DNA of 64,000 bases, from NCBI GenBank assembly GCA_026125385.1, contig JAHCLG010000013.1, positions 3,866-67,865 on the forward strand. The letters are read 5' to 3'. Below, in pieces: positions 3,991 through 44,862 of the stretch. Numbering within the stretch: position 1 is the first letter of the stretch; the number at the start of each line of letters is the position of its first letter. A program made the position numbers and the translations under genes. The stretch is from Legionellales bacterium. Its GTDB lineage: Bacteria; Pseudomonadota; Gammaproteobacteria; JAHCLG01. The notes under the pieces are model-generated. The model saw only the letters and a list, made by a program, of their open reading frames with translations, made no database searches and was not told the DNA's origin.

Positions 3991-5658
3991 ATGGCTACTA
4001 CCACGGATCATCATCGTCAAATTCATGCGCCCACTGGAACACGCTTAACGGCAAAAAGTTGGCTCACCGAAGCACCACTCCGAATGTTAATGAATAATCT
4101 TGACCCGAGTGTGGCGGAAAAACCTGAAGAGTTAATTGTCTATGGTGGACTTGGGCGAGCAGCGCGCAATTGGGCATGCTTCGATAAAATCGTCGAAACG
4201 TTAACTCGTTTAAATGACGATGAAACCTTATTAATTCAATCAGGCAAACCGGTGGGGGTATTTAAAACCCATGAAGATGCGCCGCGAGTGTTAATTGCAA
4301 ATTCTAATTTAGTGCCACATTGGGCCACCTGGGATCATTTTCATGAATTAGATCGAAAAGGTTTAATGATGTTTGGGCAAATGACGGCGGGTTCGTGGAT
4401 TTATATTGGCAGCCAAGGCATCATCCAAGGAACCTACGAAACCTTTGTCGAAGCCGCGCGCCAGCATTATCAGGGTAATTTACAAGGCAAATGGATTTTA
4501 ACTGCCGGATTAGGCGGCATGGGGGGCGCGCAACCTTTAGCAGCAACCCTGGCCGGAGCCAGTATTTTAGCGGTAGAGTGTGATCCCGCACGAATTCAAA
4601 AGCGTTTAGAGACGCGCTATGTCGATATTAAAACCACGCAATTAGACGAAGCACTGGCGCGAATTAACCAAGCTTGTGCCAAAGGGCAAGCAATTTCAGT
4701 GGCACTGTTAGGGAATGCTGCAGAAATTTATCCAGAATTAATTCGCCGCGGCATTAAACCCGACATGGTCACCGATCAAACCAGTGCGCATGATCCCTTA
4801 AACGGTTATTTGCCGCGTGGATGGTCATTAGAACAAGCCCAACATTTACGCCAAAGCGATCCACACAAAGTGATTAAACAAGCGAAAGAATCGATGGCTG
4901 TGCAAGTGCAGGCGATGTTAAATTTTCAAGAGCAAGGCATTCCAGTATTTGATTACGGTAATAATATACGACAAATGGCCTTAGAAGTTGGGGTGAAAAA
5001 TGCCTTTGATTTTCCAGGTTTTGTGCCGGCGTATATTCGTCCGTTATTTTGTCGTGGTATTGGACCTTTTCGCTGGGTAGCGTTATCGGGCGATCCAGAG
5101 GATATTTATAAAACTGATCGAAAAGTCAAAGAATTAATTCCTAACGATCCGCATTTACATCATTGGTTAGATATGGCCGCTCAAAAAATTCAATTTCAAG
5201 GATTGCCGGCACGGATCTGTTGGGTAGGTTTGGGCGATCGTCAGCGTTTAGGTTTAGCCTTTAATGAGATGGTGGCAAACGGTGAATTAAGTGCACCGAT
5301 TGTAATTGGACGCGATCATTTGGATTCAGGATCGGTCGCTAGTCCTAATCGCGAAACGGAAAATATGTTAGATGGTTCGGATGCTGTTTCCGATTGGCCG
5401 TTATTAAATGCGATGTTAACTATCGCCAGTGGCGCGACGTGGGTCAGCCTTCATCATGGGGGCGGCGTTGGCATGGGATATTCTCAACATTCAGGCATGG
5501 TGATTGTGTGTGATGGTAGTGCAAAAGCGGCTGATCGTATCGAACGTGTGCTGTTTAATGATCCAGCAACGGGGGTCATGCGCCATGCGGATGCGGGTTA
5601 TGAGATTGCCAAAGACTGTGCGCGCCAACAACAGCTTGATTTACCGATGCTGGAGTAA
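3991..5658 (+). CDS. hutU: urocanate hydratase
   Basis: 555 aa. Shows urocanase family hallmarks (the NAD-binding [12 protein letters not shown] region and typical length). Confidence 0.85.
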
Positions 5659-5739
5659 TTGCTTAAGCAATATAGTTACCAATTATTTCGCGAAAATAGC
5701 GGCAAAGCGAATTATAAAATAAGCAGCGAATAATTTGCG

Positions 5740-6525
5740 TTATTGCATATGCCAACCATGCGACACAATAAGCGATTGACCGGTTAAGGCATTGGTTTCA
5801 AAGCCTGCCAAAAATAATGCCGTTTCGGCGACATCATCCACCGTGGTAAATTCGCCATCTACGGTATTCCCTAACATCACTTTTTTGATGACGTCTTCTT
5901 CAGAAATATGCAAAGTACGCGCTTGTTCTGGAATTTGCTTTTCCACCAAAGGCGTTTTTACAAACCCTGGGGCAATTAAATTGGCACGAATATTATAAGG
6001 CGCACCTTCTTTAGCAATAGCTCGTGTTAAACCCATTAATCCATGTTTAGCGGTAACATAGGCGCATTTTTCTTTGGAGGCTTCTACGGAATGCACTGAT
6101 CCCGTAAAAATAATCGAACCACCACCGGTTTTGCGCATGCTATTCATGCAAGCTTGCGCTGTTAAAAATCCGCCATCTAAATGAATGCTTAATAATTTTT
6201 TCCAATCGGCAAATTTAAAATCAAAAATCGATGAAATAATTTGGATACCGGCATTGCTGATTAAGCAATCGATTTTTCCAAATTTTTCTACTGCCGCATT
6301 TACACCGGCATTAACTTCATCGTATGAAGTCACATCCATTTTGACACCTAATGCTTCTTTATCGAAACGTTGAGTAATCTCAGTGGCTGTGGCTTGTGAA
6401 TGAGTTAAATCAATATCAGCGATAACAACATTGGCACCATTCTCGGCAAATTTTTCTGCCATTGCCTTACCAATTCCGCTGGCGGCTCCCGTAATTAATG
6501 CGACTTTACCTGCTAATTTATTCAT
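5740..6525 (-). CDS. bdhA: 3-hydroxybutyrate dehydrogenase (SDR family)
   Basis: 261 aa SDR. Has the TGAASGIG cofactor motif and an NAG...Y/K active-site pattern. It is adjacent to a patatin-like gene, as in the Legionella bdhA-patD operon. Confidence 0.65.
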   Translation of the reverse strand: MNKLAGKVALITGAASGIGKAMAEKFAENGANVVIADIDLTHSQATATEITQRFDKEALGVKMDVTSYDEVNAGVNAAVEKFGKIDCLISNAGIQIISSIFDFKFADWKKLLSIHLDGGFLTAQACMNSMRKTGGGSIIFTGSVHSVEASKEKCAYVTAKHGLMGLTRAIAKEGAPYNIRANLIAPGFVKTPLVEKQIPEQARTLHISEEDVIKKVMLGNTVDGEFTTVDDVAETALFLAGFETNALTGQSLIVSHGWHMQ

Positions 6526-6539
6526 AATTTACCTCGTGG

Positions 6540-7718
6540 TTAAAGTGTGGTTAAAATTAATTCGTCTTCTTCCTGGGTGAAAATAATTCGTTCGTTACTT
6601 TGAATTTGCTCAAGCCACTTGGTTCTTCCTGCTTGCAATAGACGACAAGCATGTTGAAAACCATCTTCAATTCGCCGTTGAATCGACGTCGTAGAAAATT
6701 CATAATCTTTGCTATGCAATTCTTTCCCGGTGGGCGAATGATAAATAATATGAGCGATATGCAAGTGACCGACGAAACCTAAATTTAAAATATTTTGCAC
6801 TTGTTCTGATTTTAATTGTTCTTTCGTTAATAATTTTCCTAATTCTGAAATGGCTTTGCGTAAATTATATTGCGTCATATGCAATTGGGTTTGTCGTTTG
6901 GAGCGGCTAGAATAATGAATATCTTTTTCTCGTTCTAAAATACCGTCTAAACTATGGGGTAAAACGCCTTTTGCAGAAAAATTATCAATCAGTATACACA
7001 GCGTACTTTCATCGCCTAATTCCGGTAGCACGACACATAAAGGAGAATTAGCGTAGACACCGCCATCCCAATAATAATCATCGCCAATTTTTACCGCAGG
7101 AAAAGCCGGCGGTAATGCGCAACTTGCTAAGATATGATCGACGGTTAGAGTTTGTTTTGTGTTATCGAAATAAACAATGGCTCCTTCACTCACATTAACA
7201 GCACCCAAACTTAAGCGCACATGATGTTGGTTTAAATAATTAAAATCGACGAGCTCTTCAATCGATTTTCTGAGTTCACTGGTATCATAAAAACTAATTT
7301 GATCAGGCGGTGCATTGTGAATAAACCAAGGATTAATAAAATTCGGTTTGCAAAAATTGGGGATACCATAAAGCAACGCAAGCTGAGCACTCATGGAACC
7401 ATGGATTTTGGCCTGATTAACAGTATTAAATAACGACCATAGTCCGGTGTCGATGGCGACATTTTTCCAAAATGCTGCGAGCTTAGCAACGCGATTTTCA
7501 GGGGGATTGCCCGCAATAATTGCCGCATTGATAGCACCAATGGAAATTCCGCAGATCCACGTGGGTCGATAGTTGGCTTGATATAATGCTTGATAAGCGC
7601 CAAATTGAAATGCGCCCAATGCCCCTCCGCCTTGCAATACATAGACTAGATGATCATAACCATCTTTATGTTGTGGGTTGTGTTTAGCCACTTCTTTGCA
7701 GATCTCGTGCTGTAACAT
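6540..7718 (-). CDS. patatin-like phospholipase
   Basis: Glycine-rich GGGALGAFQFG motif, the GISIG serine lipase motif, and a D-G-G catalytic Asp motif (WDGGVYANSP). Confidence 0.75.
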   Translation of the reverse strand: MLQHEICKEVAKHNPQHKDGYDHLVYVLQGGGALGAFQFGAYQALYQANYRPTWICGISIGAINAAIIAGNPPENRVAKLAAFWKNVAIDTGLWSLFNTVNQAKIHGSMSAQLALLYGIPNFCKPNFINPWFIHNAPPDQISFYDTSELRKSIEELVDFNYLNQHHVRLSLGAVNVSEGAIVYFDNTKQTLTVDHILASCALPPAFPAVKIGDDYYWDGGVYANSPLCVVLPELGDESTLCILIDNFSAKGVLPHSLDGILEREKDIHYSSRSKRQTQLHMTQYNLRKAISELGKLLTKEQLKSEQVQNILNLGFVGHLHIAHIIYHSPTGKELHSKDYEFSTTSIQRRIEDGFQHACRLLQAGRTKWLEQIQSNERIIFTQEEDELILTTL

Positions 7719-8722: not shown

Positions 8723-10777
8723 TTAGTTTTGATCAGCAGGTTGAATGTTATAAGCTTTTAACAGGGCAGAAATTTCGGGTTTGCGTCCACGGAAACGCAT
8801 AAATAACGCTTCGGGAGATTCCGCACCACCGCGCTCTAAAATACAGTGGAGAAACTCACGTCCTGTCTGCGGATTTAATACACCCTCTTCAATGAATTTA
8901 GCAAATCCATCTTCAGCCATTACTTCGGCCCATAAATAACTGTAATAGCCAGCCGCATAGCCACCGGCAAAAATATGTGAAAAACTATTTTGAAAACGAT
9001 TAAAGTCCGGCGCTTGCACCACGGCAATTTGTTTGCGTACTTCATTTAAAATCGTTTGAATTTGCTGCGGAGTATTAGGATTAAATTCCATATGTAAACG
9101 AAAATCAAATAGACCAAATTCTAATTGTCTCACTAATTTCATCGCTGCTTGGAAATTTTTTGCATTTAACATTTTTTGATGCAAATTATCAGGAATTTTT
9201 TCTTGGGTTTGAAAATGGCCGCTGATTAAATCCAAAGTTTCACGTTGCCAACAAAAGTTTTCCATAAATTGACTGGGAAATTCCACCGCATCCCAAGGCA
9301 CACCATTAATTCCTGCAATATCCGCATAATTAACTTGGGTTAAGAGATGATGCAAGGTGTGGCCAAACTCGTGAAATAAGGTGGTCACTTCATCGTGAGT
9401 GAATAAAGCAGGTTGATTGCCAACCGGCGCGCTAAAATTACACGTTAAAAATGCCACAGGATGATGTAATTGATGATGTTCATCCAGATGACGGGTGCGA
9501 CAGTCATCCATCCACGCACCACCTCGTTTGTGGGCACGGGCATATAGATCTAAATAAAAACTTCCGCGTTTTTCACCGCTTTCGTCAACGATATCATAAA
9601 ATTTAACTTGTTGATGCCAAGTTTCAACCTGTTTATTTTCAGTAACGGTCATGCCAAAAATTTGGTGGATAATGGTAAACATGCCATTTAAAACCCGATC
9701 TTCAGGAAAGTAAGGTCGTAAGTCTTCTTGAGAAATATCATAGCGCTGTTGGCGTAATTTTTCCGCGTAATAGGCAACATCCCATGCTAATAATTCGGTG
9801 TGAGCGAATTGTTTGCGAGCAAATTCTTGTAGTTCTGCATATTCTGCATGTGCTGTCGGTTTGGCTTGCTGAGCGAGTGAATTTAAAAAATCCAAGACTT
9901 CTTGCGGTTTTTTTACCATTTTCGTGGCAAGTGAGCGTTCCGCGTAATTTTTAAATCCTAGTAACTGAGCTAATTGCAATTTTAACGATAAAATTTCGAA
10001 CATGATTTTATCGTTATTGTATTTTTTATCGTGCATACCTTGATCGGAGGCGCGAGTATTATAAGCGGTATAAAATAATTGACGTAACTCACGATCGTCT
10101 GCGTAAGTCATCACGGCAAAATAGATTGGAATTTCTAATTTTAGTAACCAGCCAGTAAGATTTTGCTGTTTAGCTTCTTCCTCTGTCAGCGCTTGGATAT
10201 GTGGAGGAAGTCCTGCAATTTTTTTAGGATCTTCGGTGTAAAACGACCAGGCATCGCTACATTTTAAAATATTTTGTTCAAATTCATTAGCCAGCGTTGA
10301 TAATTTTTGTGAAATTTCGGCAAATTGTTGTTTTGCTTCTGGTGCTAGATCGACTCCCGCTAAATGAAAATTTTTTATACTATCACTTAATAACTTTTTT
10401 TGATCGGCATTTAAATTAGGATCTTCATTGACGTTTTTTATGGCTTTAAATAATGCTTCATTTTGACCAACTTCGGTCATGTAGGCCGAAATTTTTGGTA
10501 GACATTGACTATAAACTTCATTTAATGCTTCGCTATTAAGTACCGAATTTAAATGAGCAACAGGTGAAAACATATCGTTTAATCGTGTATCGAGCATTTC
10601 GAGACGATGAATAGTATTTTCCCAATTGAATGTCGACTGGTTTAAGAGTTGTTGGATGGCTTGACGATTATTTTCCAAAATCGTATCCAACGCCACTTCC
10701 ACATGCTGTGGATCAATTTCTTTAAAAGCCGGTAAGGTATCATTACGTAATAAAGGGTTAGTCATAGCCTGCCTCAA
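8723..10777 (-). CDS. prlC: oligopeptidase A (M3 zinc metallopeptidase)
   Basis: 684 aa. HEFGHTLHH zinc motif and M3 family length. Confidence 0.9.
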   Translation of the reverse strand: MRQAMTNPLLRNDTLPAFKEIDPQHVEVALDTILENNRQAIQQLLNQSTFNWENTIHRLEMLDTRLNDMFSPVAHLNSVLNSEALNEVYSQCLPKISAYMTEVGQNEALFKAIKNVNEDPNLNADQKKLLSDSIKNFHLAGVDLAPEAKQQFAEISQKLSTLANEFEQNILKCSDAWSFYTEDPKKIAGLPPHIQALTEEEAKQQNLTGWLLKLEIPIYFAVMTYADDRELRQLFYTAYNTRASDQGMHDKKYNNDKIMFEILSLKLQLAQLLGFKNYAERSLATKMVKKPQEVLDFLNSLAQQAKPTAHAEYAELQEFARKQFAHTELLAWDVAYYAEKLRQQRYDISQEDLRPYFPEDRVLNGMFTIIHQIFGMTVTENKQVETWHQQVKFYDIVDESGEKRGSFYLDLYARAHKRGGAWMDDCRTRHLDEHHQLHHPVAFLTCNFSAPVGNQPALFTHDEVTTLFHEFGHTLHHLLTQVNYADIAGINGVPWDAVEFPSQFMENFCWQRETLDLISGHFQTQEKIPDNLHQKMLNAKNFQAAMKLVRQLEFGLFDFRLHMEFNPNTPQQIQTILNEVRKQIAVVQAPDFNRFQNSFSHIFAGGYAAGYYSYLWAEVMAEDGFAKFIEEGVLNPQTGREFLHCILERGGAESPEALFMRFRGRKPEISALLKAYNIQPADQN

Positions 10778-14154: not shown

Positions 14155-14629
14155 AGCACAATCTCCAAAATTAACTTTAAAATCGGCGAATTGGTTATTT
14201 GTCTCTGTTACTCGAATGCATTCGCCGTGGATTTAAATTCTGTTGAGTGTTCTTCGAAATAAGTTTGAATTTCTTCTGAATAAAAAGGCGTAGTCTACAC
14301 CAACCTCGGAATAACTGAAAAACAGTTTATGGTGTGACATAAGTTGAGAGTCTGTGCTCATAAGGGTCGTGAGGGAATAAAAATAAACGGTTGGGTTATC
14401 TAATTGCATTCTAGTCAAGCGTGAGATCGATCATTTTAAAAATAAGTATTCCCCTGGTTCTCTTCGCAGTCACTTTAGCCAAAGTGAATGTTACTTCAAC
14501 GATCTTTATAAGCTAAGCAGCATCCTAATCTTAGACGAAAGAGGGGGCGACATGTATAGAATCGACACTTTCAGACTCAAGCTCGAAGATTTTGCACAGG
14601 CGCTAAGAAAAAAATATTTACGCGCCACT

Positions 14630-14842
14630 TGTAAGTACGCCAGATTATGGTATATAATGTACACTATGTGGTGATGGGAATACGTGACTCGTAAATGGTT
14701 TTGGTAACCTCGTGTTGCCACTATGCCGCGCGACCCTCTCTGCGCGGAAATCGCTACTGGCGACCCCCAAACCAGTAGCACTTCTTCGCCCCGGTGATCT
14801 TCCCTTCCCCCTACCTAATCACATTACCGGGGCTTCTTTTAT
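14630..14842 (+). ncRNA. candidate small RNA or structured leader upstream of mpg
   Basis: A sigma70-like promoter, TTGTAA-N17-TATAAT (about 14630-14660), is followed by three GC-rich hairpins. These are CCGCGC/GCGCGG at 14726-14747 and GCTACTGG/CCAGTAGC at 14753-14779. The third, CCCCGGTGAT/ATCAC..ACCGGGG at 14789-14832, is followed by CTTCTTTTATT and resembles an intrinsic terminator. Confidence 0.35.
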
Positions 14843-14867
14843 TAGCCTGATTCTGTTACAACAGGGC

Positions 14868-15479
14868 ATGATGAAAAAACTTACGTCCACTTTTTTCGAT
14901 CGCGATGCTGTGCAAGTTGCGCGCGAATTATTAGGCAAAATCATTTGCCATCATTATAGCGATCATCTACTAACGGCGATGATCATTGAAACTGAAGCCT
15001 ATTATCTCGACGATAAAGCCAGTCACGCCTCCTTAGGGTTTACCGAAAAACGTAAAGCCCTATTCATGCCAGCAGGCACCATTTACATGTATTACGCGCG
15101 GGGTGGGGATTCATTGAACATCAGTTGTCAGGGTGCAGGTAATGCGGTTTTGATAAAATCGGGCATTGCATATCCCATTATTGAATCGTCTCCACAGATG
15201 ATTTCGATCATGCAAACTTTAAATCCCATTTTACCCACTCAAAAAATTCGCGCTCGCGAAAAATTATGCAGCGGCCAAACCTTGTTGTGTAAGTCATTAG
15301 GTTTAAAAGTGCGCGATTGGGATCAGCAACAATTTAACGATGATTTTTATTTTATCGATAATGATTATTCACCCCAAAAAATTATTACGACCACACGTCG
15401 CGGCATTCCCAAAGGCCGCGATGAGCATTTACCGTATCGTTTTATTGATGCTGCTAACCTAAAATTTTGCAGTCGATAA
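14868..15479 (+). CDS. mpg: DNA-3-methyladenine glycosylase (Mpg/AAG family)
   Basis: FFDRDAVQVARELLGK...YARGG family pattern. The track ORF starts at 14712, but that N-terminal extension overlaps the structured non-coding region. The real start is likely MMKK at 14868 or 14871. Confidence 0.8.
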   Translation: MMKKLTSTFFDRDAVQVARELLGKIICHHYSDHLLTAMIIETEAYYLDDKASHASLGFTEKRKALFMPAGTIYMYYARGGDSLNISCQGAGNAVLIKSGIAYPIIESSPQMISIMQTLNPILPTQKIRAREKLCSGQTLLCKSLGLKVRDWDQQQFNDDFYFIDNDYSPQKIITTTRRGIPKGRDEHLPYRFIDAANLKFCSR

Positions 15480-34946: not shown

Positions 34947-35103
34947 CAATGTAACGATCTTGTTACCAAAAATAGTGACGCTGACATTTTGAAGTTACTC
35001 GCAAATTTTATACTATTCCCATACTCAATTGAGTAACCCATAATTCCACCCCATAGGATTATGGGGACATTAACGTGTCAAATGTAAAGTGTGCTGGTAA
35101 AAT

Positions 35104-35141
35104 GGGGGAGAACAATGCTGCGTATCTCCCCCGTTTTTTTT
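35104..35141 (+). terminator. intrinsic terminator-like hairpin (GGGGGAGA / TCTCCCCC, 13-nt loop, T8)
   Basis: Perfect 8-bp GC-rich stem followed by 8 T. Lies between the kefB-like gene and the convergent small gene, and could act in both directions. Confidence 0.5.
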
Positions 35142-35159
35142 GCGGATTAAAATACTTTT

Positions 35160-35414
35160 CTATTCCTTTAAAATGCCTTCTTGATCAGCTTCAAAATTTA
35201 ATTCTCGAATATAATCTTGAATTAATTTTGCCGAAATAGCTAATTTTTGCGAGGCTTGCGAACACTCGGAAAAATATTGTTTTGATGCCTTGTCGTTAAA
35301 ATTAGCTTGCGGTTCAATGGCTGCTAATAATTGAGAAATAATAGCACTTAATTCTGAAATCACTTCTGCCAGTGGCAACAGATCATGTGCGACTTTTTTA
35401 ATGGTACGGGTCAT
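35160..35414 (-). CDS. hypothetical small protein (84 aa)
   Basis: ORF directly downstream of the XRE/S24 repressor on the same strand. No motif recognised. Confidence 0.4.
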   Translation of the reverse strand: MTRTIKKVAHDLLPLAEVISELSAIISQLLAAIEPQANFNDKASKQYFSECSQASQKLAISAKLIQDYIRELNFEADQEGILKE

Positions 35415-35440
35415 GTGGTTTCCTTTTACAAAATATCATA

Positions 35441-36085
35441 TTATCCATTCCTCGAACGTTTCCAACATTCTCGATAGACGCCAATAATCATCACTTCATC
35501 GTGTAATTTTAATTTGTTAGGGTGATTTAACGGTGAACTTAAAATAAGATGATCATTCATCTTGTGTGCAAAGCGAATTAATATCTCATTAGCTGGGCGC
35601 GTATATGCCAAGATAATTTCGCCATCGTTAAAATGAAGCAGTTGTTCGAATATAATCATATCGCCTACTTCAAATTTTGGCGCCCATTCATGGCTAGTCA
35701 CATAAATGCTTATGGAATTATTTTCATACACTTGGGAGGTGATGATAAAGTTATTCGTGGTTAGTGATTTTTTTTCGTTACTTTGATAATACATGCGCAG
35801 TTGATCGGGGTAATATAAGGGTACGCGGTAGGTTTTGATTGACGTATTTTCTTGATGAATTTCACCTTGTCCAGTGGCTAGCCAAGTTTCATTCACATTC
35901 AAATATTCTGCAATTTTTTTCGCATTTTTAGAAAATTTAACATCATTATTGAGAATATAGTGCAATCCAGAAGGTGACAACCCCAGTTTTTCCGCCATAT
36001 GCGATTGTTTAACCCCCATGGTATCAACGAGATACTTGAGGCGTTTCGATACACTGTCTAGATTGTCGAGCTTTTCGGAGGTCAT
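35441..36085 (-). CDS. XRE-HTH / S24 (LexA/CI-like) two-domain repressor
   Basis: N-terminal HTH (QSHMAEKLGLSPSGLHYILN). C-terminal S24-like beta domain. GDM appears in place of the canonical GDSM, so autocleavage is uncertain. Confidence 0.6.
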   Translation of the reverse strand: MTSEKLDNLDSVSKRLKYLVDTMGVKQSHMAEKLGLSPSGLHYILNNDVKFSKNAKKIAEYLNVNETWLATGQGEIHQENTSIKTYRVPLYYPDQLRMYYQSNEKKSLTTNNFIITSQVYENNSISIYVTSHEWAPKFEVGDMIIFEQLLHFNDGEIILAYTRPANEILIRFAHKMNDHLILSSPLNHPNKLKLHDEVMIIGVYRECWKRSRNG

Positions 36086-36130
36086 TAGTGTTTAGCTCTC
36101 TCACCGGAAAAGCGGTAGCATAACAGTAAC

Positions 36131-36144
36131 TGAATAATTATTCA
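36131..36144. promoter_or_regulatory. perfect 14-bp palindrome TGAATAATTATTCA (operator candidate)
   Basis: Lies in the divergent intergenic region between the repressor and the 90-aa ORF. A related site GAATAAATATTC is at 36245-36257, and there are several TTCGAA cores. Confidence 0.4.
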
Positions 36145-36306
36145 AATTATATTAAAATTTTGGTGTTGAAATTTCGAAACCGTTCTATATTCGAATAAAA
36201 TTGCTATTTGTCGCGTTATAACTTGAAAATTACGCTTGACTTCGAATAAATATTCAGTATTATGTCACTGTCTTTTCGAATTTTTAGTTAGAGATAGGGG
36301 TAGTCA

Positions 36307-36579
36307 ATGCAATCTGTCGATGAACAACCAGTCAATCACCAAGCCATTCCGTTAGCGCGTTTTAAAATTGTGAAGCATTATTATGATCAATCCATTGCTC
36401 GCGTAATGTTGTACGATCATGAAAATGCGCAAACTCATTTGTTGACATTGCCAGAACTCGTGCAGCACGATGATTTTCTCACTAGTCTCAACGCAACGGA
36501 TTTACGCATCGTGATGTCGATGTGGGTCGATTATGAAATATTACAGGAACGTCAAGCCATTCGCGATCTTATTCATTAA
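36307..36579 (+). CDS. hypothetical protein (90 aa), divergent from the repressor
   Basis: ORF with a plausible start. Followed by a 12-bp inverted repeat (GAGCAATTACCA/TGGTAATTGCTC at 36633-36684) and then a T7 run. Confidence 0.45.
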   Translation: MQSVDEQPVNHQAIPLARFKIVKHYYDQSIARVMLYDHENAQTHLLTLPELVQHDDFLTSLNATDLRIVMSMWVDYEILQERQAIRDLIH

Positions 36580-36833
36580 CGTAAATATTTTTCAGACGAG
36601 CAGAAAATTCCTGGCTTGCTATTTTCTGATAAGAGCAATTACCACGTTTATTAATACGTTCTCTGTGTGTTATGGTAATTGCTCGTTTTTTTGATAGTTT
36701 CAAAAGTGCAAACTGCAGTTATTCAAAAGGATTAAAAGTAATGGAGAATCATTATTCTAGTAAATTATTGTAATATTTTCACCATATTTGGTTTTTTTTC
36801 TCTCTCTGATTTAATATATTAGATTTTTGTATG

Positions 36834-37934
36834 CTATATATTCCCGCATATTTTACATGACGACATTTTTTCCCAGGTTTCCTTTACAAGTAATTTATTA
36901 GATTGAAAATCATAAACAATCAGATTACCTAAGGCGTTCGGAGCAAGAATATCAGTAGTGATTTTTATAAACTCAGATAACATCAATCCTGTTAGAATAG
37001 ATACTAAAGGTGCAATTGTTATATTCGGAATTCTGGAGCTCACAAAATTATCATTTTCTATGAAATCTAAGAATAATGTTCCTGACTCTCTGGCAGAATT
37101 CTTCCAGCATTCAATACACCCGCTTTTCCCTGGTATGACTGAATAAAAGAAGCAATATTTCCAATCTAAAGCACCACAAATAAAAGGGACTTTTTCATTG
37201 ATGCAGGCCTGGTTTACCCAGTTTAGGATTTGGTTTCTGGGTTGATCAATAACACTAATAACAAACTCTTGGCCAGATATAATATTGGAAACGTCATCAT
37301 TCGATGATATTTTAATATTAATAAAATTTAGTTTTGCATTAGGCAAAAATGCTTTTATTTTTCTTTTTGCAATATCAACTTTGCGTAGACCCACATCAGA
37401 TTCATCGTATATTATTTGTCTATTGAGATTTGATAACTCGATTTTATCAAAATCTACGGCTTGTATTTGATGTATACCTAATGCTGCAAGTTCATAAAGT
37501 ATATGGGAACCAGCTCCACCGAGCCCTAATAGTGTAACTTTAGTATTTTGTAGTTTTTTTTGATAATTAAATTTATTATGACTAGAAGATGTGTAGGCGC
37601 CAAAAAATTCAATATTTCGTTCCCAGCGTTCAATCTCATAGGGTGAAAATTCTTTACTATTTAGAATGACATTGTCTTCTAGTAAATAAGCTTTATCAAG
37701 TGATGTCAGCAGGTCATTTAAATATGATACTTCTTTTGGATGAGTGTGATTAAGGATTTCTTCTATTTCTTTGACAGTTTTTTTGCCATCCAGTAGCTGG
37801 CATACCGTTTTGATAAAACCTTTACTATCACCCAGCTCTATGGCTGTTCCCGGACTTTTAAAAAAATATATTTTATCTTCAGATGTGTAATATTCAACCA
37901 TAGCCTTTAGTATTGGCCGACTAGTGTTTTTCAT
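36834..37934 (-). CDS. ThiF/MoeB/MccB-like E1 adenylyltransferase with N-terminal RRE (RiPP recognition element)-like domain
   Basis: The N-terminal roughly 120 aa show a PqqD/RRE-like pattern (LLDGKKTVKEIEEIL...DLLTSLDKAYLL). This is followed by the E1 P-loop LLGLGGAGS and DFDKIELSNLNRQ. The C-terminus has CxxC pairs (CIECW, CKICG), a Zn tetrathiolate arrangement as in MoeB/MccB. Confidence 0.7.
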   Translation of the reverse strand: MKNTSRPILKAMVEYYTSEDKIYFFKSPGTAIELGDSKGFIKTVCQLLDGKKTVKEIEEILNHTHPKEVSYLNDLLTSLDKAYLLEDNVILNSKEFSPYEIERWERNIEFFGAYTSSSHNKFNYQKKLQNTKVTLLGLGGAGSHILYELAALGIHQIQAVDFDKIELSNLNRQIIYDESDVGLRKVDIAKRKIKAFLPNAKLNFINIKISSNDDVSNIISGQEFVISVIDQPRNQILNWVNQACINEKVPFICGALDWKYCFFYSVIPGKSGCIECWKNSARESGTLFLDFIENDNFVSSRIPNITIAPLVSILTGLMLSEFIKITTDILAPNALGNLIVYDFQSNKLLVKETWEKMSSCKICGNI

Positions 37935-37958
37935 AATTTTTCACTTAGAGCAAATTGA

Positions 37959-38018
37959 TTACGCTACTTGAGCTGTACCCGCTATACTTATATCAATTTC
38001 TTTTATTTCGAAACTCAT
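37959..38018 (-). CDS. 19-codon ORF MSFEIKEIDISIAGTAQVA, candidate precursor/substrate peptide
   Basis: GAGGTG Shine-Dalgarno exactly 6 nt upstream of the ATG. Stops 24 nt before the E1-like gene on the same strand. Confidence 0.4.
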   Translation of the reverse strand: MSFEIKEIDISIAGTAQVA

Positions 38019-38233
38019 TTCTCACACCTCTTCATTTATTCAATAGATGACATATTAGCATAAGACTTGCAACTGAACAATTGATGTATATTGAATGGCT
38101 CTCTGGCGTTTCCCTAACAAATAAAAGCTTTTATGATTGGTTAAAGTATGGTAATTTACTGCATAGTATGTTTTTTACTATAAAAAACAATTCGTGAATT
38201 TCCTTCGCAATTATAAATGGTAGATACCACTCG

Positions 38234-39676
38234 ATGCTTAAGTGTTTTAAATTTATTTTATGTGTTTTGGCAACCCTAAGTTATTTATGTGGTAGCGCCG
38301 CTGGGTTAACCATCCCTCTTGGAAATAATAAAGTTTCACTTGATCCATCCTATGCTTTGGATGTATTGAGTTTATTTGTTGCGAGACAAATTAATTGTCA
38401 ACTGATACGCAACCAGAATGGTAATTACAAATTAGAAGCGGCAGAGTCTCTTAAATTTATATCTCCTACAGAATTACAAATAGTATTAAATAAAAATGCA
38501 AAATTTACTGATGGTTCTCCCGTAACAACATATGACGTCTTAGCAAGTTTTAATTATATAAAAAAATATCGAGCATTTTATCGAAATTTTTTTTCATGGA
38601 TTAATGATATTAAAATCATAGATCAAACAAAGTTATTAATCCGTTTGAAAAAACCTGCCCCGCAACTTTTAAATATGCTTGCATCACCAATTTATTCAAT
38701 ATATAAAAAATCTTTTTTAGCCAGAGCAGAAAAAAATAAATCTCTTTGGCATAACCCAATTGGTTGTGGTGGGTATAAAATACTGAAGTTTACAAAAAAG
38801 GAAATCCAGCTTGAACCAATACATAAGGGATTGCCAATTAAGTTTGTTTTTAATAATGAAAATCAAATATCGTCTGCTGATATTGATAAATATGATTTAA
38901 TCACATTGAAAGTTAGCCAAAACTTAAAGAAGTTGTCTAATTTCCAGGATATAAAAATATTTGATCCGTCACAGCTTTATGTCGGGTTAAATGTTTCTAA
39001 ACCTATTTGGAGTAACAAAAGCACACGATGCTCTTTTCTTTCAAAAATTGATGATAATGATTTAAAAAAATTATATGGTGACTCTGGAATTATAGCTAAT
39101 GATTTCCTACCTCAAGGTACTCTGGGGTATAATAAGAACTTCAATTTTGCAGCAATAATTCATGCTAACACTGAAGATTATTCGTCCTTAAAAATCACAA
39201 AGGATATATGCGTCGCATATATAGGGATTAGTATACCTAAAGATCTTATAAAAGGTTATCTAGATACTATAGAAAAAATTTCACCTCGCATTAAGCTTTT
39301 ATCAATTTCAAATCCTAGTAAATTTGCTCCAATTTTCTTAAAGAAAAAATGCGATATAATTATTTTTAGCTTAAAATCTAGTTATTATGATGGTTATGAA
39401 TATTTAGATGTATTCGCAGATAAAGATGAAAATTTCACTGGAATTCATGACGAAGATCTTATTTCTAAAATAAAAAAGAGCCAATACGTTACCGATTTAA
39501 ATAAGCGCGCAATGCAATATCAAAAAATTATTAATAATATTGCAAATAAATGCTATATAAGACCATTGATCACGGTCCCAATGAGAGATATTTATGTGAA
39601 AAATATATTTAATGCTCCTGGTATTTCTATAGGTCCATATGCCGAGTATTACCTTGGAAATATTGCTTTAAAATAG
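38234..39676 (+). CDS. family-5 (peptide/nickel type) periplasmic solute-binding protein, orphan
   Basis: Signal peptide plus an SBP_bac_5-like N-terminus (KFTDGSPVTTYDVLASFNYIKK). No adjacent ABC permease or ATPase. Confidence 0.6.
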   Translation: MLKCFKFILCVLATLSYLCGSAAGLTIPLGNNKVSLDPSYALDVLSLFVARQINCQLIRNQNGNYKLEAAESLKFISPTELQIVLNKNAKFTDGSPVTTYDVLASFNYIKKYRAFYRNFFSWINDIKIIDQTKLLIRLKKPAPQLLNMLASPIYSIYKKSFLARAEKNKSLWHNPIGCGGYKILKFTKKEIQLEPIHKGLPIKFVFNNENQISSADIDKYDLITLKVSQNLKKLSNFQDIKIFDPSQLYVGLNVSKPIWSNKSTRCSFLSKIDDNDLKKLYGDSGIIANDFLPQGTLGYNKNFNFAAIIHANTEDYSSLKITKDICVAYIGISIPKDLIKGYLDTIEKISPRIKLLSISNPSKFAPIFLKKKCDIIIFSLKSSYYDGYEYLDVFADKDENFTGIHDEDLISKIKKSQYVTDLNKRAMQYQKIINNIANKCYIRPLITVPMRDIYVKNIFNAPGISIGPYAEYYLGNIALK

Positions 39677-40027: not shown

Positions 40028-41380
40028 TCAAACTAAGGATTTCCCATATCGTTTTTCAAGTTTCAAAATATCCTTGTAACACAAAATAGCAAATACTGTT
40101 GAGAATAAGGTCATTATTAATCCAAATGTTTTAGGCGTTGCATGAATAAATAAGATAAACACTTCTGTGATACCAATTAAAATTAATATTTCAGTTAGAA
40201 AATAATTTTTTGTAACCATATGGCTATTTTTTGTGGCACGTAAAGGCACAGTGAATCCGTTGCCTATTTGTGCAATAAACGAACTTCCCAAAAAAATAAT
40301 TACATATTGCATTTGATCAGGATTGGGGATATAACCATACACTAATTTAAATAAAGGTGACACGTAGAGTAAAGAGATCGTTAAGAACAACGAAGTTGGA
40401 ATGATGCCTGTATAAAAATATATTGGCCACCATGTGACATTTTCGTTACATTCTTGAGAAAAAGTTTGTGACGCTTCTCTAATTGCTATTTGCATTGCTG
40501 CAACAAATGGCATGCAAATAATAAATGCTAATTGTAATGTTAGTTGATAGGTAACTAAAAAATTTGAAGAACTTATAAAATAGACAAATTGCAAAGCAAG
40601 AATAAAAGGTGTAATCCCTCTTATTAAATAAACACCTAGTTCGCCCCACCATACTTTCATAATCATAGGCAAAGGATATTTATCCCAGCCCATTCTATTT
40701 TTTGATAGAAAATAAAGTCCAGAAGAAATAGCTAGGATATATAATATAGTAGTAGAGGATATTAATATTATCATTGGATAATAAATAGAATTTACTGTGG
40801 TACTTCCGTGAAAATAGTAACTAACAATCTGACTATCTATAATAATATTTAAAATAACTAGAACAAAAGCTATTTTCATACTAAAATTTTGTTTTTTAGA
40901 AGCAACTAATATACCATCGACGGTGCAATAAAGTGTTTGAAGAATCATATTTATGAGGCCAATTCGTAGATATGCTATTGCTAAGGGAATATAAGATGTT
41001 TGAACTTTACAAAACGTTACAAATTGATATGAAAATACCCCTGCGGTAATGGCTATGCATAGCGCAATTGTTCCTGATAAAAGTAAATGATTAATGAGTA
41101 CTGAGCCTTCCTTACCTTTACATTCTTCACGGTTAAAGAATACTAGACAACTTATATAAGTTGCTAATCCAATGAATTGTCCAAAAGTAATAAATACATA
41201 CTGTAAATTATGTATATATAGTGCTGATTGACCTAAAACGGCAATATATCGATTATCAATTATAGGGAAAAATCTCTGAAATATTTGTGAAAAAACGATG
41301 GGTAATAGAAGAATAAAATGATGTTGCAAATTCTCTGGTTTTTGAAAGCATTTTTTTATAATAGCTGTAAATAATTCCAT
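40028..41380 (-). CDS. MATE/MOP-family efflux transporter
   Basis: 450 aa, about 12 TM segments. MATE-like N-terminal pattern PIVFSQIFQRFFPIIDNRYIAVLGQSALY. Confidence 0.6.
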   Translation of the reverse strand: MELFTAIIKKCFQKPENLQHHFILLLPIVFSQIFQRFFPIIDNRYIAVLGQSALYIHNLQYVFITFGQFIGLATYISCLVFFNREECKGKEGSVLINHLLLSGTIALCIAITAGVFSYQFVTFCKVQTSYIPLAIAYLRIGLINMILQTLYCTVDGILVASKKQNFSMKIAFVLVILNIIIDSQIVSYYFHGSTTVNSIYYPMIILISSTTILYILAISSGLYFLSKNRMGWDKYPLPMIMKVWWGELGVYLIRGITPFILALQFVYFISSSNFLVTYQLTLQLAFIICMPFVAAMQIAIREASQTFSQECNENVTWWPIYFYTGIIPTSLFLTISLLYVSPLFKLVYGYIPNPDQMQYVIIFLGSSFIAQIGNGFTVPLRATKNSHMVTKNYFLTEILILIGITEVFILFIHATPKTFGLIMTLFSTVFAILCYKDILKLEKRYGKSLV

Positions 41381-41686: not shown

Positions 41687-42594
41687 TTAGTTTAATTTTT
41701 TTCTACATTCAAACAAAATCATCGGTATGAATAGCTCTGGTGTTTCACTATCCTTACTGATAATAATTTTATTGACACTAAGATTAGTCTTATTAAGTAA
41801 ACTCAACCATTCTTCTTTAGAACGACTTAAGCTATTCCAGTTAACCATCAAATTTAAATCATTTAATACGGCTCTTAAATACCCTAGATGTGACTTTTGC
41901 GGCAACATAAAATCGACAATGAGCAATTTAGCTTCATTAGACAAACTTTTTGCGCATTCATTCAGAATTTTAATGGCCATGTCATCATTCCAATTCAATA
42001 ATGTGCGGCATAAGACATACAGATCACCACTTTGGGGAATACCTTGAAAAAAATCACCACCGATTATGGTTACGCGCGTCAGACAATTATAGGCATTTAG
42101 AACTTTTTCAGCGTTTTGTACCACGGTTGGTAAGTCGAATAAGATACCAGTTTGATGAGGATTGTTTTTCAATACATTGCCCAAAAAATGCCCTTGAGCA
42201 CCAGCAACATCTACAATTCGATGGTAACTATCAAAATTATTTTGCCAAATTTTTTGTTCCAGGCAGGTTCATGAGTTTTAAGGGTGAATTCAAATTCTTC
42301 AAATGCTTCATAAGCTCTGATTAAATGAGGTGACCTCGCACGAGCTAATTGTGGGGTTAACTCTGTGCAATAAACCCTATCCTGAGAGATAAGTACGATT
42401 TCATGTGCTTCTAACACTCTTAAAAAACGTTTAAGGGCGTCGTGATTAAATTGTAATGTTGTCGCTAGTTCTAGTGTGCTAATACCGGTACTAGGAATCA
42501 ACTTATCTAGCTTGTACTCACCAGCTAGTAAAATTACTTTAGCGGTCACATAGCTAAGCGCCAAGGTATAAATTTTATGAGGATTCTTTTGCAT
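41687..42594 (-). pseudogene. class-I SAM-dependent O-methyltransferase (COMT-like family 2) split by a frameshift in a T6/A6 homopolymer
   Basis: The N-terminal dimerisation fragment (42211-42594) and the C-terminal catalytic fragment (41687-42184) are in different frames. Reading the second frame upstream restores YHRIVDVAGAQGHFLGNVLKN, the SAM-binding motif. The shift maps to the homopolymer run at 42250-42255. Confidence 0.7.
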
Positions 42595-42840: not shown

Positions 42841-44862
42841 TTGATTGAACCGAGTTTGGTTATTTCCAATACCTTAGAAATTCGAAGGCTATTGGCATTA
42901 GTTAGTAGTGATGAGCACACTTTTTCAGTAATTGATGATAATAATATTGTGTATTTGCCCGATTATAAATTTCAAGATTTAGTCGATGAAATTATAAAAT
43001 CGGATAAAATAAAACATGGCTGTGAAATCAATGATTTTTTCACAATAGCATTTCATGGTCGAACATATCAAGTATTATGCTCAATAATTAGCAAGCCTGG
43101 AATCATATCCTTTAAAGGAAGCCCATATTTAATCAGCTTTAATTTGGAAAATCCTTTAAAAATTTCAATTAATACACTTCTCTATTTTTTAATATCTACG
43201 ATATTGATATTTTTAATTACCTATTTTTGGTTTGGGATTAATTTAAAGAGAAAGTTATTAAATTATCTGTATTCACTTGAGGTTCAAATCAAAAATAAAA
43301 ATTTCAACTTCATAGAGAATGTTTCTGCGGTTAAAGATGATAAAATACCTCTTGAAATCGAGAATATTCGCGCGGCTTTTCAACAGCTATTAAGCGATCT
43401 GGGTAATGAAACGAATAAACGAATTGCCAGTGAAAAAAAAGCCGCCATTAGCACACTAGCAGCTCAGGTTGCTCACGATATTCGTTCACCTGTCGCTGCA
43501 ATTCAAATGCTAAGCAAAGAAAACTGCTTATTGCCAGAAAATACTCGTAAATCGTTAAAAGATGCGGCAGCTCGAATACAGGATATTGCCAATAATTTAT
43601 TGTCTCAATATAAAACTGGTGCTAAAGATACGGCAGAGCAGAATAGTTTATTTTTAATTTCAGATGCAATTAGTGCTGTTGTTTCTGAAAAAAAATTACA
43701 ATATTCAGAACGCAAACTAAACTTGCATATTCAAGCACAAGGTGATGCCAATCTCGCTTTTATATATTCAGACCCCATTAACTTTAAACGAATGCTTTCC
43801 AATTTACTCAATAATTCGATTGAGGCCATAGGTGAAGAGGGTTCTATTTCCATTGTGCTTCACTCATCACAAGATTATGTTGATGTGCGGATCACGGATG
43901 ATGGTTGTGGTATGTCTTCCGTAAAAATAGCTAATATTCTTAATGGCAATATTACTTCAACTAAAAATCAAGGTTCCGGTTTAGGCTTGCAACATGCGCG
44001 AGACTTTATGAAAAACGCCGCGGCAAAATTTGATATTCAATCAACAGAACGTATCGGTACCACTATTCACTTACAATTTAAACGAAGTGCTTCTCCTCCA
44101 TGGTTAGCTGATAAAATTTCTATTAAAAAGCAGAGTACTATTATCATTCTTGATGACGATGTTTCCATTCATGGCGCATGGGATCGATATTTTGCCGATC
44201 GAATTAATGTTGAGTATGGCATTAATATTCTGCATTTTCACCAAGCAGCGGAGTGTATTCTTACAATAAAAAATAATTTCAACACGCTGAAGGATGTAAT
44301 TATATTAACGGATTTTGAATTACTTAACCAAAATATGAATGGTTTAGATGTAGTTGAACATAGCGGTGTAAATAATACAATATTAGTCACCAGTTATTAT
44401 GATGACCGAAAAATATTAGCAAGGGCAGTATCACTGAATGCTAAAGTATTACCTAAAATGTTAGCCAGTGAGATTGAAATTGAAATTAATGAACAGCCTC
44501 AAAATTTTAAAATTCCTGAGGCTCCAAAAAATGAAGCTATCGATATAGTTTTGCTGGAAGATAATCAAGAGTTATCTGATATTTTCGCATTTATATGTGA
44601 ACGCAATGGAAAGCAGGTAAAAATCTATCATAACCCTTACTCATTATTTACGGATTTAAATACTTTCGACCCTCTTGCTACCAAAATTTGTCTTGATCTT
44701 AATCTCGGCTTCGATCCTGTCAATGGAATTGATATTGCCATTCTTCTGCATAATAAGGGATTTAAGCAAATTTATCTTGCTAGTGGCAGCCAGATCGATC
44801 CAAATTCTGTTCCCGAATATTTAATGGTATTAAAAAATAAAATCGATCTGACGCGTCTTTAG
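42841..44862 (+). CDS. hybrid sensor histidine kinase with two C-terminal receiver-like domains
   Basis: One clear TM segment, a HisKA H-box (VAHDIRSPVAAI), HATPase G-boxes (DDGCGM, GSGLGL), then two CheY-like modules with divergent acidic pockets. Confidence 0.7.
   Translation: MIEPSLVISNTLEIRRLLALVSSDEHTFSVIDDNNIVYLPDYKFQDLVDEIIKSDKIKHGCEINDFFTIAFHGRTYQVLCSIISKPGIISFKGSPYLISFNLENPLKISINTLLYFLISTILIFLITYFWFGINLKRKLLNYLYSLEVQIKNKNFNFIENVSAVKDDKIPLEIENIRAAFQQLLSDLGNETNKRIASEKKAAISTLAAQVAHDIRSPVAAIQMLSKENCLLPENTRKSLKDAAARIQDIANNLLSQYKTGAKDTAEQNSLFLISDAISAVVSEKKLQYSERKLNLHIQAQGDANLAFIYSDPINFKRMLSNLLNNSIEAIGEEGSISIVLHSSQDYVDVRITDDGCGMSSVKIANILNGNITSTKNQGSGLGLQHARDFMKNAAAKFDIQSTERIGTTIHLQFKRSASPPWLADKISIKKQSTIIILDDDVSIHGAWDRYFADRINVEYGINILHFHQAAECILTIKNNFNTLKDVIILTDFELLNQNMNGLDVVEHSGVNNTILVTSYYDDRKILARAVSLNAKVLPKMLASEIEIEINEQPQNFKIPEAPKNEAIDIVLLEDNQELSDIFAFICERNGKQVKIYHNPYSLFTDLNTFDPLATKICLDLNLGFDPVNGIDIAILLHNKGFKQIYLASGSQIDPNSVPEYLMVLKNKIDLTRL

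Follow-up and report, generated by a model that had tools for sequence, protein, structure and literature searches.

We describe here a 19-codon gene, encoding the peptide MSFEIKEIDISIAGTAQVA, in a stretch of 64,000 nt from contig JAHCLG010000013.1 of a Legionellales bacterium (this whole stretch is hereafter called the window). The gene lies directly upstream of the gene for an MccB/PaaA-type E1 enzyme, a ThiF-family adenylyltransferase. It is almost certainly a real gene and, judging from the sequence comparisons presented below, the encoded peptide is very probably a substrate of the E1. Taken together, we consider it probable that this mini-gene encodes the precursor of the adjacent E1, that it belongs to an undescribed family of ribosomally synthesised peptides modified post-translationally (RiPPs) and that it is processed by the mechanism proposed here.

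The precursor mini-gene and its conservation

On the minus strand, the mini-gene extends from ATG (38018-38016) to TAA (37961-37959) with 19 sense codons, and exactly 24 nt (37958-37935) separate its stop from the ATG of the E1 gene (37934). The position of the open reading frame (ORF), its Shine-Dalgarno (SD) site, the 6-nt spacing and the distance to the E1 gene had been given in a first-pass annotation of the window and were correct to the base. No other small ORF with an SD site is present in the intergenic region of 320 nt (37920-38240). The E1 gene itself is preceded by a weak SD, in contrast to the strong SD of the peptide gene. A promoter and terminator scan of 35000-39000 gave counts not above those of shuffled sequences and no convincing promoter for the peptide gene; by eye, a weak candidate can be seen about 40 nt upstream (TTGTTC-17-TATAAT-like, TAATAT). 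No RNA family was detected by an Rfam scan of the same region.

We gathered loci with E1 homologues (designated L001, L003, etc.) from genomes, metagenomes, assemblies and plasmids, and listed the small ORFs upstream of each E1. Apart from L078, every E1 of at least 33% identity for which upstream sequence was available was preceded, on the same strand, by an SD-carrying ORF of 15-23 codons (19 in most). This gave a total of 34 distinct peptides from more than 30 loci in Pseudomonadota, Bdellovibrionota, Actinomycetota and Chloroflexota, and equivalent AGGAG or GGAGG sites stand ahead of the peptide gene in nearly all of the related loci. Members of the family are MIFTVKIIKVSLAGCAIPN (L001), MTFEVKYTPVSLAGVAVPY (L004), MKFKVTYVKVSLAGSASPY (L097), MKFKVKKTPLSSAGMSNVG (Fluviispira vulneris), MKFKKYQASDAKLASVG (Histophilus somni, L081), MKFTKHATSNAKLALVG (Salmonella Muenchen plasmid pLG26p2, L087), MKFTKFNASNATLAAVG (Pantoea piersonii plasmid, L088), MAIKFTKASNATLSAVG (Vibrio mangrovi, L084, in three tandem copies), MSFEKISVAGTSQTG (Burkholderia ubonensis), MTIEKISAAGVASVG (Burkholderia RPE67, L089), MSVAMKTRKASAAGQAHEG (Streptomyces sp. 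130, L092) and MSLSITVHETSIATIALEG (Ktedonobacteraceae, L093). The first-pass annotation had proposed a RiPP precursor for the adjacent RRE-E1 and had suggested testing whether the ORF keeps its length and position in homologous loci. This comparison was decisively positive, and the conserved ORF upstream of related E1s argues for the proposed precursor role.

The association was quantified by a strict test, in which an SD and the pattern S.[AS].{6}-stop were required within 420 nt upstream on the same strand. Among 27 non-redundant related loci, 24 passed; in the background, the same was true of 23 of 6,019 small ORFs (P about 6e-39 by a binomial test). Two of the three loci that failed still carry a peptide: one is located at a contig end and the other has a longer SD spacing. 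In the window itself, the pattern S.[AS][GST].[AS].{3}-stop was matched by a single one of the 1,932 ORFs of 12-30 codons, and this is the mini-gene. Such short ORFs are thus abundant, and a frame opened by chance in an AT-rich intergenic region would be unremarkable in itself; enrichment, the unique motif match and the synonymous bias described next nevertheless reduce the probability of a chance ORF to practically nil, and we rejected it.

Between the peptide genes of L003 and L004, 15 of 60 nt are different, including 10 third codon positions, while the flanks are unalignable. The codon changes comprise 8 synonymous and 3 non-synonymous ones. In L014, L016 and L018, the peptide genes are identical and the flanks different. 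Divergence of the peptide gene is thus of the coding type, with constraint at the protein level. In Vibrio mangrovi L084, three tandem genes (5543-5596, 5686-5739 and 5829-5882) encode the identical peptide with a period of 143 nt. An AAGGAG precedes each copy, there is one synonymous difference between them, and a classical terminator follows the last copy.

We also considered that the small ORF acts as a regulatory leader peptide of the E1 gene (an upstream ORF or attenuator) instead of a substrate. In the microcin C operon, translation-controlled termination occurs after mccA. Many of the related loci (at least 12) have strong hairpins between the peptide gene and the E1 gene, in part with a T-run behind them, as expected for control of the precursor:enzyme stoichiometry, but the 24-nt spacer of the window contains none. 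Attenuators would not be expected to retain Ser-x-Ala unchanged, always equally far from the stop, in four phyla, nor to co-diversify with the E1 or be triplicated in tandem. Because of the enrichment, the synonymous-biased divergence and the pairing of peptide with E1, both chance and a purely regulatory ORF are poor explanations; we regard the latter as very improbable, with the reservation that regulatory and substrate roles are not mutually exclusive.

A fixed pattern at the C-terminus of the peptides

Residues were numbered from the C-terminus, and 25 peptides were tabulated; nine more were found later. In the tabulated set, Ser(-9) occurred in 25/25, Ala(-7) in 24/25 and Ala or Ser(-4) in 25/25, while position -6 was Gly, Ser or Thr in 24/25 and Lys in the remaining one. 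The nine later peptides all fit this pattern, so that Ser(-9) is present in 34/34 and Ala(-7) in 33/34 of the whole set. In contrast, the last residue is variable: G in 17 peptides, Y in 6, N in 6, S in 3, W in 1 and A in 1, that of the window. The six Asn-ending peptides include the four SLAGCA[I/V]PN peptides of the window's subclade.

At the other end, a start of the form M-x-[F/I]-x-(x)-K is kept across the family, and the leaders are mostly basic. The spacer between this N-terminal motif and the core is variable (hence 15-23 residues in total), whereas the distance from Ser to the C-terminus is constant in all peptides. Asp and Glu are absent from 17/34 peptides and Lys from three (L020, L093 and L096). 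Cys and Trp are sporadic, with Trp found in 2/25 tabulated peptides at non-equivalent positions. These data support a family of precursors not described before, whose consensus reads M-x-[F/I]-x-(x)-K ... S-x-A-G-x-[A/S]-x-x-X-COOH.

The window peptide of 19 residues has the family residues M1, F3, K6, S11 (-9), A13 (-7), G14 (-6) and A16 (-4). It ends in Val-Ala and contains neither Glu-Glu nor Trp. We propose residues 1-10, with the M-x-F-x-x-K start, as leader and residues 11-19 (S-I-A-G-T-A-Q-V-A) as core. Two features highlighted by the first-pass annotation did not extend to the family: the acidic amphipathic leader is peculiar to the window peptide, and the terminal Ala is likewise unique to it, conservation being concentrated in Ser(-9), Ala(-7) and the small residue at -4.

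The E1 enzyme of the window and its clade

The window E1 matched Pfam ThiF over residues 124-348 (5.7e-44), with about 120 extra N-terminal residues in front. Its sequence matches in the PDB were MccB (1e-31) and PaaA (6e-29), the latter spanning residues 6-203 and thus taking in the N-terminal domain. All NCBIfam ThiF and MoeB equivalogs scored far below their cut-offs. An AlphaFold (AF2) model calculated from 40 homologues had a pLDDT (predicted local distance difference test) of 94 and a pTM (predicted template modelling score) of 0.91; its residues 1-90 form 4 strands and 3 helices before the Rossmann-type domain, with pLDDT about 90-97. Foldseek retrieved full-length MccB with this model (TM 0.79/0.84), followed by PaaA, while MoeB and ThiF covered the adenylation domain alone (TMq about 0.6). 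Accordingly, the identification of the neighbour as an RRE-E1 in the first-pass annotation was upheld by the PaaA and MccB matches, which include the N-terminal domain, and by the fold comparison.

Across the 40 homologues, the GxGxxG residues G136, G138, G139 and G141, as well as D162, N170-R171-Q172, K184 and D229, are invariant, and so are the four zinc-site cysteines C272, C275, C359 and C362. The window E1 therefore combines an intact adenylation domain, a fused N-terminal clamp/RRE and an adjoining short precursor gene, as MccB/PaaA family members do. Since fold, clamp domain, catalytic motifs and zinc cysteines are all intact, the RRE-E1 label is right and, from sequence and model, the enzyme should be catalytically active. 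A non-catalytic E1 of the type found with thiazole/oxazole-modified microcins (a SagC/McbB-like docking protein) was rejected: the catalytic motifs are intact, and no YcaO was found among the annotated neighbours of the window and related loci.

In a neighbour-joining tree, all E1s with Ser(-9) peptides fell into one clade, with the window E1 inside. Outside this clade stood E. coli MccB (25% identity) and a PaaA-like enzyme from Pantoea (28%), together with two loci whose peptides are of another kind and a distant group from soil. The division of the peptides into subtypes parallels the E1 subclades in the tree, from which it appears that peptide and E1 evolve as a pair. An exhaustive HMMER search gave 219 representative E1s at E<=1e-30, of which about 30 were at the level of this clade; its size is roughly 30 clusters at 50% identity. 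The distant soil group (L031, L032, L041, L047 and L050, from soil metagenomes) consists of clamp-E1s of 25-28% identity with other small ORFs upstream, ending ...SIHKGN, ...SIHKHG, ...SIHKNG or ...ATQGQG, which may be another uncharacterised precursor family.

The similarity to MccB, the closest solved structure, raises the question of a microcin C-type chemistry, in which a nucleotide would be joined to the C-terminal residue via an N-P bond to give a Trojan-horse peptidyl-nucleotide. The six peptides ending in Asn would suit it, as would the peptide-E1-MFS layout of related loci, which equals mccABC. The phosphoramidate route is described as needing the Asn side-chain amide (PMC12596934, PMC4010828), but the window peptide ends in Ala and 28/34 peptides are non-Asn. 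In addition, MccB falls outside the E1 clade, and genes resembling MccD/E/F were not seen. We consider this chemistry quite improbable for the family.

Proposed mechanism

The defining reaction of ThiF-like enzymes is the nucleotidylation of a carboxyl group (PMC12596934), and for IndF and EnfB the activated group is the C-terminal carboxylate, which is then captured intramolecularly (PMC12150305, PMC12596934). In our family, the C-terminus is the only carboxylate common to all members, because 17 peptides are without Asp and Glu. This absence and the variable last residue fit the suggestion of the first-pass annotation that the E1 would activate the C-terminal carboxylate, by a chemistry unlike that of MccA (Asn) or ThiS/MoaD (Gly-Gly). 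We think such activation probable. Ser(-9) is the only invariant side-chain nucleophile, because three peptides have no Lys, and Cys and Trp occur only in scattered members. As Ser(-9) is invariant, and by analogy with IndF and EnfB, we propose a macrolactone as the product; this assignment to Ser(-9) is possible but should be taken as tentative.

A simple model would thus be as follows. The strong SD gives abundant peptide, as can be seen from the sequence, and the E1 is encoded 24 nt downstream with its weak SD. The N-terminal segment of the peptide would dock as a strand on the clamp/RRE domain of the E1, as in MccB and PaaA. The E1 would then adenylate, with ATP, the C-terminal alpha-carboxylate (Ala19 in the window), and the acyl-adenylate would be captured by O-gamma of Ser11, eight positions upstream, which is the least certain step. 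The predicted product is a nine-residue C-terminal macrolactone with a ten-residue N-terminal tail and a mass change of -18 Da. Ring closure would be helped by the small residues at -7, -6 and -4. The product might be exported, by the MATE protein in the window and by MFS proteins elsewhere, and in relatives trimmed or degraded by an M3, M81 or M19 peptidase.

The same gene and the same enzyme-substrate pair could also lead to another ring, if the C-terminus were captured by a backbone amide (imide), the N-terminal amine (head-to-tail) or a leader Lys (lactam); Ser(-9) and Ala(-7) would then serve in recognition only. EnfB is proposed to make a C-terminal macrocyclic imide without any special side chain, and small residues at -7, -6 and -4 suit any tight turn. 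On the other hand, Lys is absent from L020, L093 and L096, and the length between N- and C-terminus varies (15-23 residues) while that between Ser and C-terminus is fixed. The simplest role for a hydroxyl that never varies and keeps its distance to the C-terminus is that of the reacting group, and capture by another nucleophile seems rather unlikely.

Transfer of the acyl-adenylate to an external partner would yield a thiocarboxylate with sulfide (a mini ThiS/MoaD-like carrier) or a conjugate with an amine or nucleobase-type group. Like ThiS, MoaD and ubiquitin, 17/34 peptides end in Gly. Nucleobase-related genes recur, since Vut_1/YhhQ is a fixed partner within the subclade of the window and four loci carry a glycosylase of the AlkA-like or Tag type, and thiols can intercept MccB intermediates according to one report (PMC13255007). 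Nevertheless, neither a rhodanese or other sulfurtransferase nor a second ligase is conserved in the cassette, minimal clusters consist of just peptide, E1 and MFS with no accessory gene universal, and the peptides end in various residues (G, Y, N, S, A, W). We judge an external partner unlikely.

Several observations weigh against the lactone model or its application to the window. The lactone is a deduction from conservation alone; an alternative role for Ser(-9), Ala(-7) and the small residues would be in recognition within the E1 channel. The L078 E1 is related but its peptide has no Ser motif. The window peptide is the sole family member ending in Ala and is without the Pro(-2) of its neighbours. 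The window cassette has no adjacent MFS gene, and the window is also without the Vut_1 transporter, the M81/M19 peptidase and the protein of about 190 residues that are common to all other loci of its subclade. The window copy is thus atypical and could be decaying or re-wired.

Gene context in the window and in related loci

Coordinates of the window features are given in Table 1.

Table 1. Features of the precursor locus in the window
Feature	Position	Strand	Evidence or remark
Precursor peptide gene, 19 codons + TAA, MSFEIKEIDISIAGTAQVA	37959..38018	minus	Read from the sequence; family conservation
Shine-Dalgarno site GAGGTG of the peptide gene	38025..38030	minus	6-nt spacer (tgagaa) to ATG
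MccB/PaaA-type E1, ThiF-family adenylyltransferase, 366 aa	36834..37934	minus	Pfam, PDB, fold, motifs
HTH + Peptidase_S24 (LexA/CI-like) repressor	35441..36085	minus	Pfam HTH_19 1.5e-7, Peptidase_S24 1e-3 (below Pfam cut-off)
Orphan SBP_bac_5 periplasmic peptide-binding protein	38234..39676	plus, divergent from the peptide gene	Pfam SBP_bac_5 1.2e-21
MATE-family transporter	40028..41380	minus	Pfam MatE 2.1e-8
Hybrid histidine kinase (HisKA, HATPase_c, C-terminal receiver-like regions)	42841..44862	plus	Pfam

The minimal cluster, found in Histophilus, Pantoea and Vibrio, is peptide-E1-MFS, usually with a divergent ArsR-type regulator. An MFS gene directly follows the E1 gene in L008-L023, L081-L085, L087, L088, L092 and L093. 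A Peptidase_M3 gene is found with the cassette in at least nine loci of the soil/Actinobacteria/Burkholderia subclade, and a haem-oxygenase-like protein is encoded in five loci. In the window's subclade (E1s 47-55% identical), the consensus is peptide-E1, then on the opposite strand an M81 (MlrC) or M19 peptidase, a Vut_1/YhhQ-family transporter, the protein of about 190 residues and an HTH-S24 repressor. This accessory protein of about 170-200 residues belongs to no Pfam family and is encoded at 5352-5954 in L001, 6766-7341 in L025, 5222-5782 in L086, 9711-10289 in L094, 10325-10900 in L095 and 10289-10801 in L096.

HTH-S24 genes adjoin the cassette in L001, L003, L025, L086, L094, L095 and L096, and the HTH-S24 gene of the window is likely the regulator of its cassette. 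Strict orthology with the repressor of the clade was rejected: the window protein is only 19% identical to its L086 counterpart over 167 residues, so that the architecture is shared but orthology is uncertain. The gap of 750 nt between this gene and the E1 gene (36086-36833) gave nothing at E<=1 in tblastn with all partner proteins, and an MFS, Vut_1 or peptidase pseudogene there was rejected. The sole sizeable ORF in the gap (36307-36579, plus strand, 90 codons) is convergent with the E1 gene and belongs to no Pfam or NCBIfam family. It is preceded by a promoter-like sequence (36236-36263, TTGACT-16-TATTAT, 10/12), which ranks among the top two sigma-70-like matches in the region.

Genes of the MccD/E/F type were not seen, and neither an MFS gene nor a remnant of one was found in the window. 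The MATE gene is the sole candidate exporter near the window cassette, a weak link given that other loci use MFS. The M3 oligopeptidase homologue at 8759-10759 (minus strand) was discarded as a part of the cassette: it lies 27 kb away, is the sole homologue, shows 29% identity to the cluster-linked M3 of B. ubonensis and is probably a housekeeping oligopeptidase A. An O-methyltransferase gene at 41687-42594 (minus strand) is split into a dimerisation domain (42211-42594) and a Methyltransf_2 part (41687-42184). The S-adenosylmethionine-binding motif VDVAGAQG appears in another frame directly after the TAG at 42213-42211, indicating a frameshift, and the gene is either a pseudogene or an assembly error.

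The SBP_bac_5 protein has homologues of 47% identity adjoining the cassette in L006 and L097 and would be a candidate receptor or binding protein for the product. The window kinase, encoded 3 kb beyond the SBP gene, is 29-31% identical to the kinases directly after SBP in L097 and L006. As both SBP and kinase are homologous to a contiguous pair beside the cassette in these two loci, the comparison points to the sensing module as a conserved accessory of the window's sub-branch. Because these genes stay beside the cassette in the window, L006 and L097, a signalling function can be imagined: the lactone peptide would be a diffusible Gram-negative signal, exported and then sensed in the periplasm by SBP_bac_5 and the hybrid histidine kinase. 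We regard this as doubtful; as a conjecture, it would represent an ATP-dependent, E1-based analogue of staphylococcal autoinducing peptide (AIP) quorum sensing in Legionellales-like bacteria.

DNA-glycosylase-like genes lie beside the cassette in four unrelated loci, L087 (7240-8133), L093 (9305-10228), L021 (about 6283-7026) and L083 (11917-12594); they are AlkA_N/HhH-GPD-like in general, but of the Tag type in B. ubonensis. If the LexA-like repressors and the YhhQ-family transporters of the window's subclade are considered as well, these genes hint at a DNA- or nucleobase-related activity of the product. A second reading, in which the product is genotoxic or nucleobase-linked, would explain all three gene types.

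The family is horizontally mobile, since the L095 cassette is carried by an integrative/conjugative element, between type IV secretion genes (VirB4, TrbC; 1-2300) and a phage-type integrase (14386-15110), and the Salmonella copy by a conjugative MOBF plasmid. In L081 (Histophilus somni) and L086 (a gammaproteobacterial metagenome-assembled genome), the cassette lies 4-5 kb from the same housekeeping block (rhodanese, secB, gpsA), which could be a shared insertion hot spot or a coincidence.

Novelty and annotation of the family

ThiF-like RiPP enzymes form a small field, in which five chemistries have been characterised. In their accessible text, two reviews of 2025 list only the chemistries of the microcin C, pantocin, IndF/EnfB, GrcB and ThiS/MoaD systems and no ThiF-made lactone. 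Most of the ThiF-like RiPP sequence space is described there as unexplored and hard to mine, with tiny and unannotated precursors. Neither these reviews nor Bantysh et al. 2014, in their accessible parts, mention the hosts found here. Full-text literature searches gave nothing on the E1 clade, its hosts or a ThiF-made lactone, with thin coverage of subscription journals, so that this absence is no proof. Seven family peptides (extended to at least 20 residues) had no match in NCBIfam or Pfam at E<=10. These results support a subfamily of ThiF-type RiPPs that is widely distributed and was not described before.

The deposited annotation of L087, L088, L089, L092 and L093 is without the precursor gene, and RefSeq records leave the gene unannotated. 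The L092 precursor overlaps the called 3' end of an M3 peptidase gene, and that of L093 a called opposite-strand gene of 76 codons, probably spurious. Current annotation pipelines thus miss these precursor genes or overwrite them with spurious calls. The family offers a testable system, with 34 precursors, a sharp motif, a defined E1 clade and minimal three-gene clusters, and it has members in hosts that can be cultivated, are genetically tractable or have medical relevance (Salmonella Muenchen, on a conjugative plasmid, Histophilus somni, Burkholderia ubonensis, Vibrio mangrovi, Pantoea piersonii and Streptomyces). Should the Ser-to-C-terminus ester prove true, it would represent the first case of an E1-type enzyme forming a lactone, and biocatalysis would gain an ATP-driven peptide macrolactonase.

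Comparison with known systems

The microcin C system (MccA/MccB/MccC, E. coli plasmids) resembles the new family in that a tiny and usually unannotated peptide gene lies directly upstream of a clamp-bearing E1, for which MccB is the best sequence and fold match. MccB adenylates a C-terminal carboxylate, and many family loci, too, encode an MFS exporter after the E1. However, MccA has 7 residues, must end in Asn and gives a peptidyl-AMP phosphoramidate, whereas the family peptides have 15-23 residues, a variable end and Ser(-9). The terminal Asn on which the succinimide and the N-P bond depend, a grouping with MccB, and MFS or MccD/E/F genes are all missing in the window.

Similarly, pantocin A of Pantoea agglomerans (PaaP/PaaA) is made by an RRE-fused ThiF-like enzyme from a small precursor, and PaaA performs an ATP-dependent intramolecular cyclisation. 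PaaA acts on an internal Glu-Glu(-Asn) core of a 30-residue precursor, where it activates side-chain carboxylates (PMC12596934, PMC12250964). In contrast, half of our peptides are without any acidic residue, and Glu-Glu is absent from that of the window. With ThiS/MoaD and their enzymes ThiF/MoeB, the family shares the adenylation fold and motifs and the presumed activation of a C-terminal carboxylate, and half of its peptides end in Gly. ThiS and MoaD are, however, beta-grasp proteins of 66-81 residues ending in Gly-Gly, and ThiF/MoeB are without the peptide-clamp domain, unlike the window pair, with its 19-residue peptide ending in Val-Ala and its clamp-bearing E1.

In the streptococcal GrcA/GrcB thiolactone, an RRE-bearing ThiF-like enzyme forms a (thio)ester macrocycle near the C-terminus, but the group activated by GrcB is a Glu side chain, the attack comes from a C-terminal Cys thiol, and radical-SAM partners are present; Glu and Cys are not conserved in the new family. 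Staphylococcal AIPs (AgrD/AgrB) have the same topology as that predicted here, a short tail and a ring from a side chain to the C-terminal carbonyl, and Ser-lactone variants exist among them. The sensor kinase encoded near the cassette in the window, L006 and L097 is a further AIP-like feature. The AIPs differ by their 5-residue rings and by the use of the AgrB cysteine protease during cleavage instead of an ATP-dependent E1, and there is no homology.

Finally, in the IndA/IndF (Streptococcus pneumoniae) and EnfA/EnfB (enterofaecin, Enterococcus faecium) systems, an RRE-ThiF enzyme adenylates the C-terminal alpha-carboxylate, which is attacked from a fixed position a few residues upstream with loss of water. 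The nucleophile of IndF is the indole N of a Trp three residues upstream and that of EnfB, tentatively, a backbone amide, whereas the candidate here is Ser O-gamma, with a much larger ester ring. The IndF and EnfB motifs (W-x-x-I and WWI[I/V]I) are from Firmicutes hosts, while the new family is mainly found in Proteobacteria, and the window peptide carries no Trp near its C-terminus. Their clusters are minimal, with precursor, ThiF enzyme and transporter, and follow the same logic as that proposed here.

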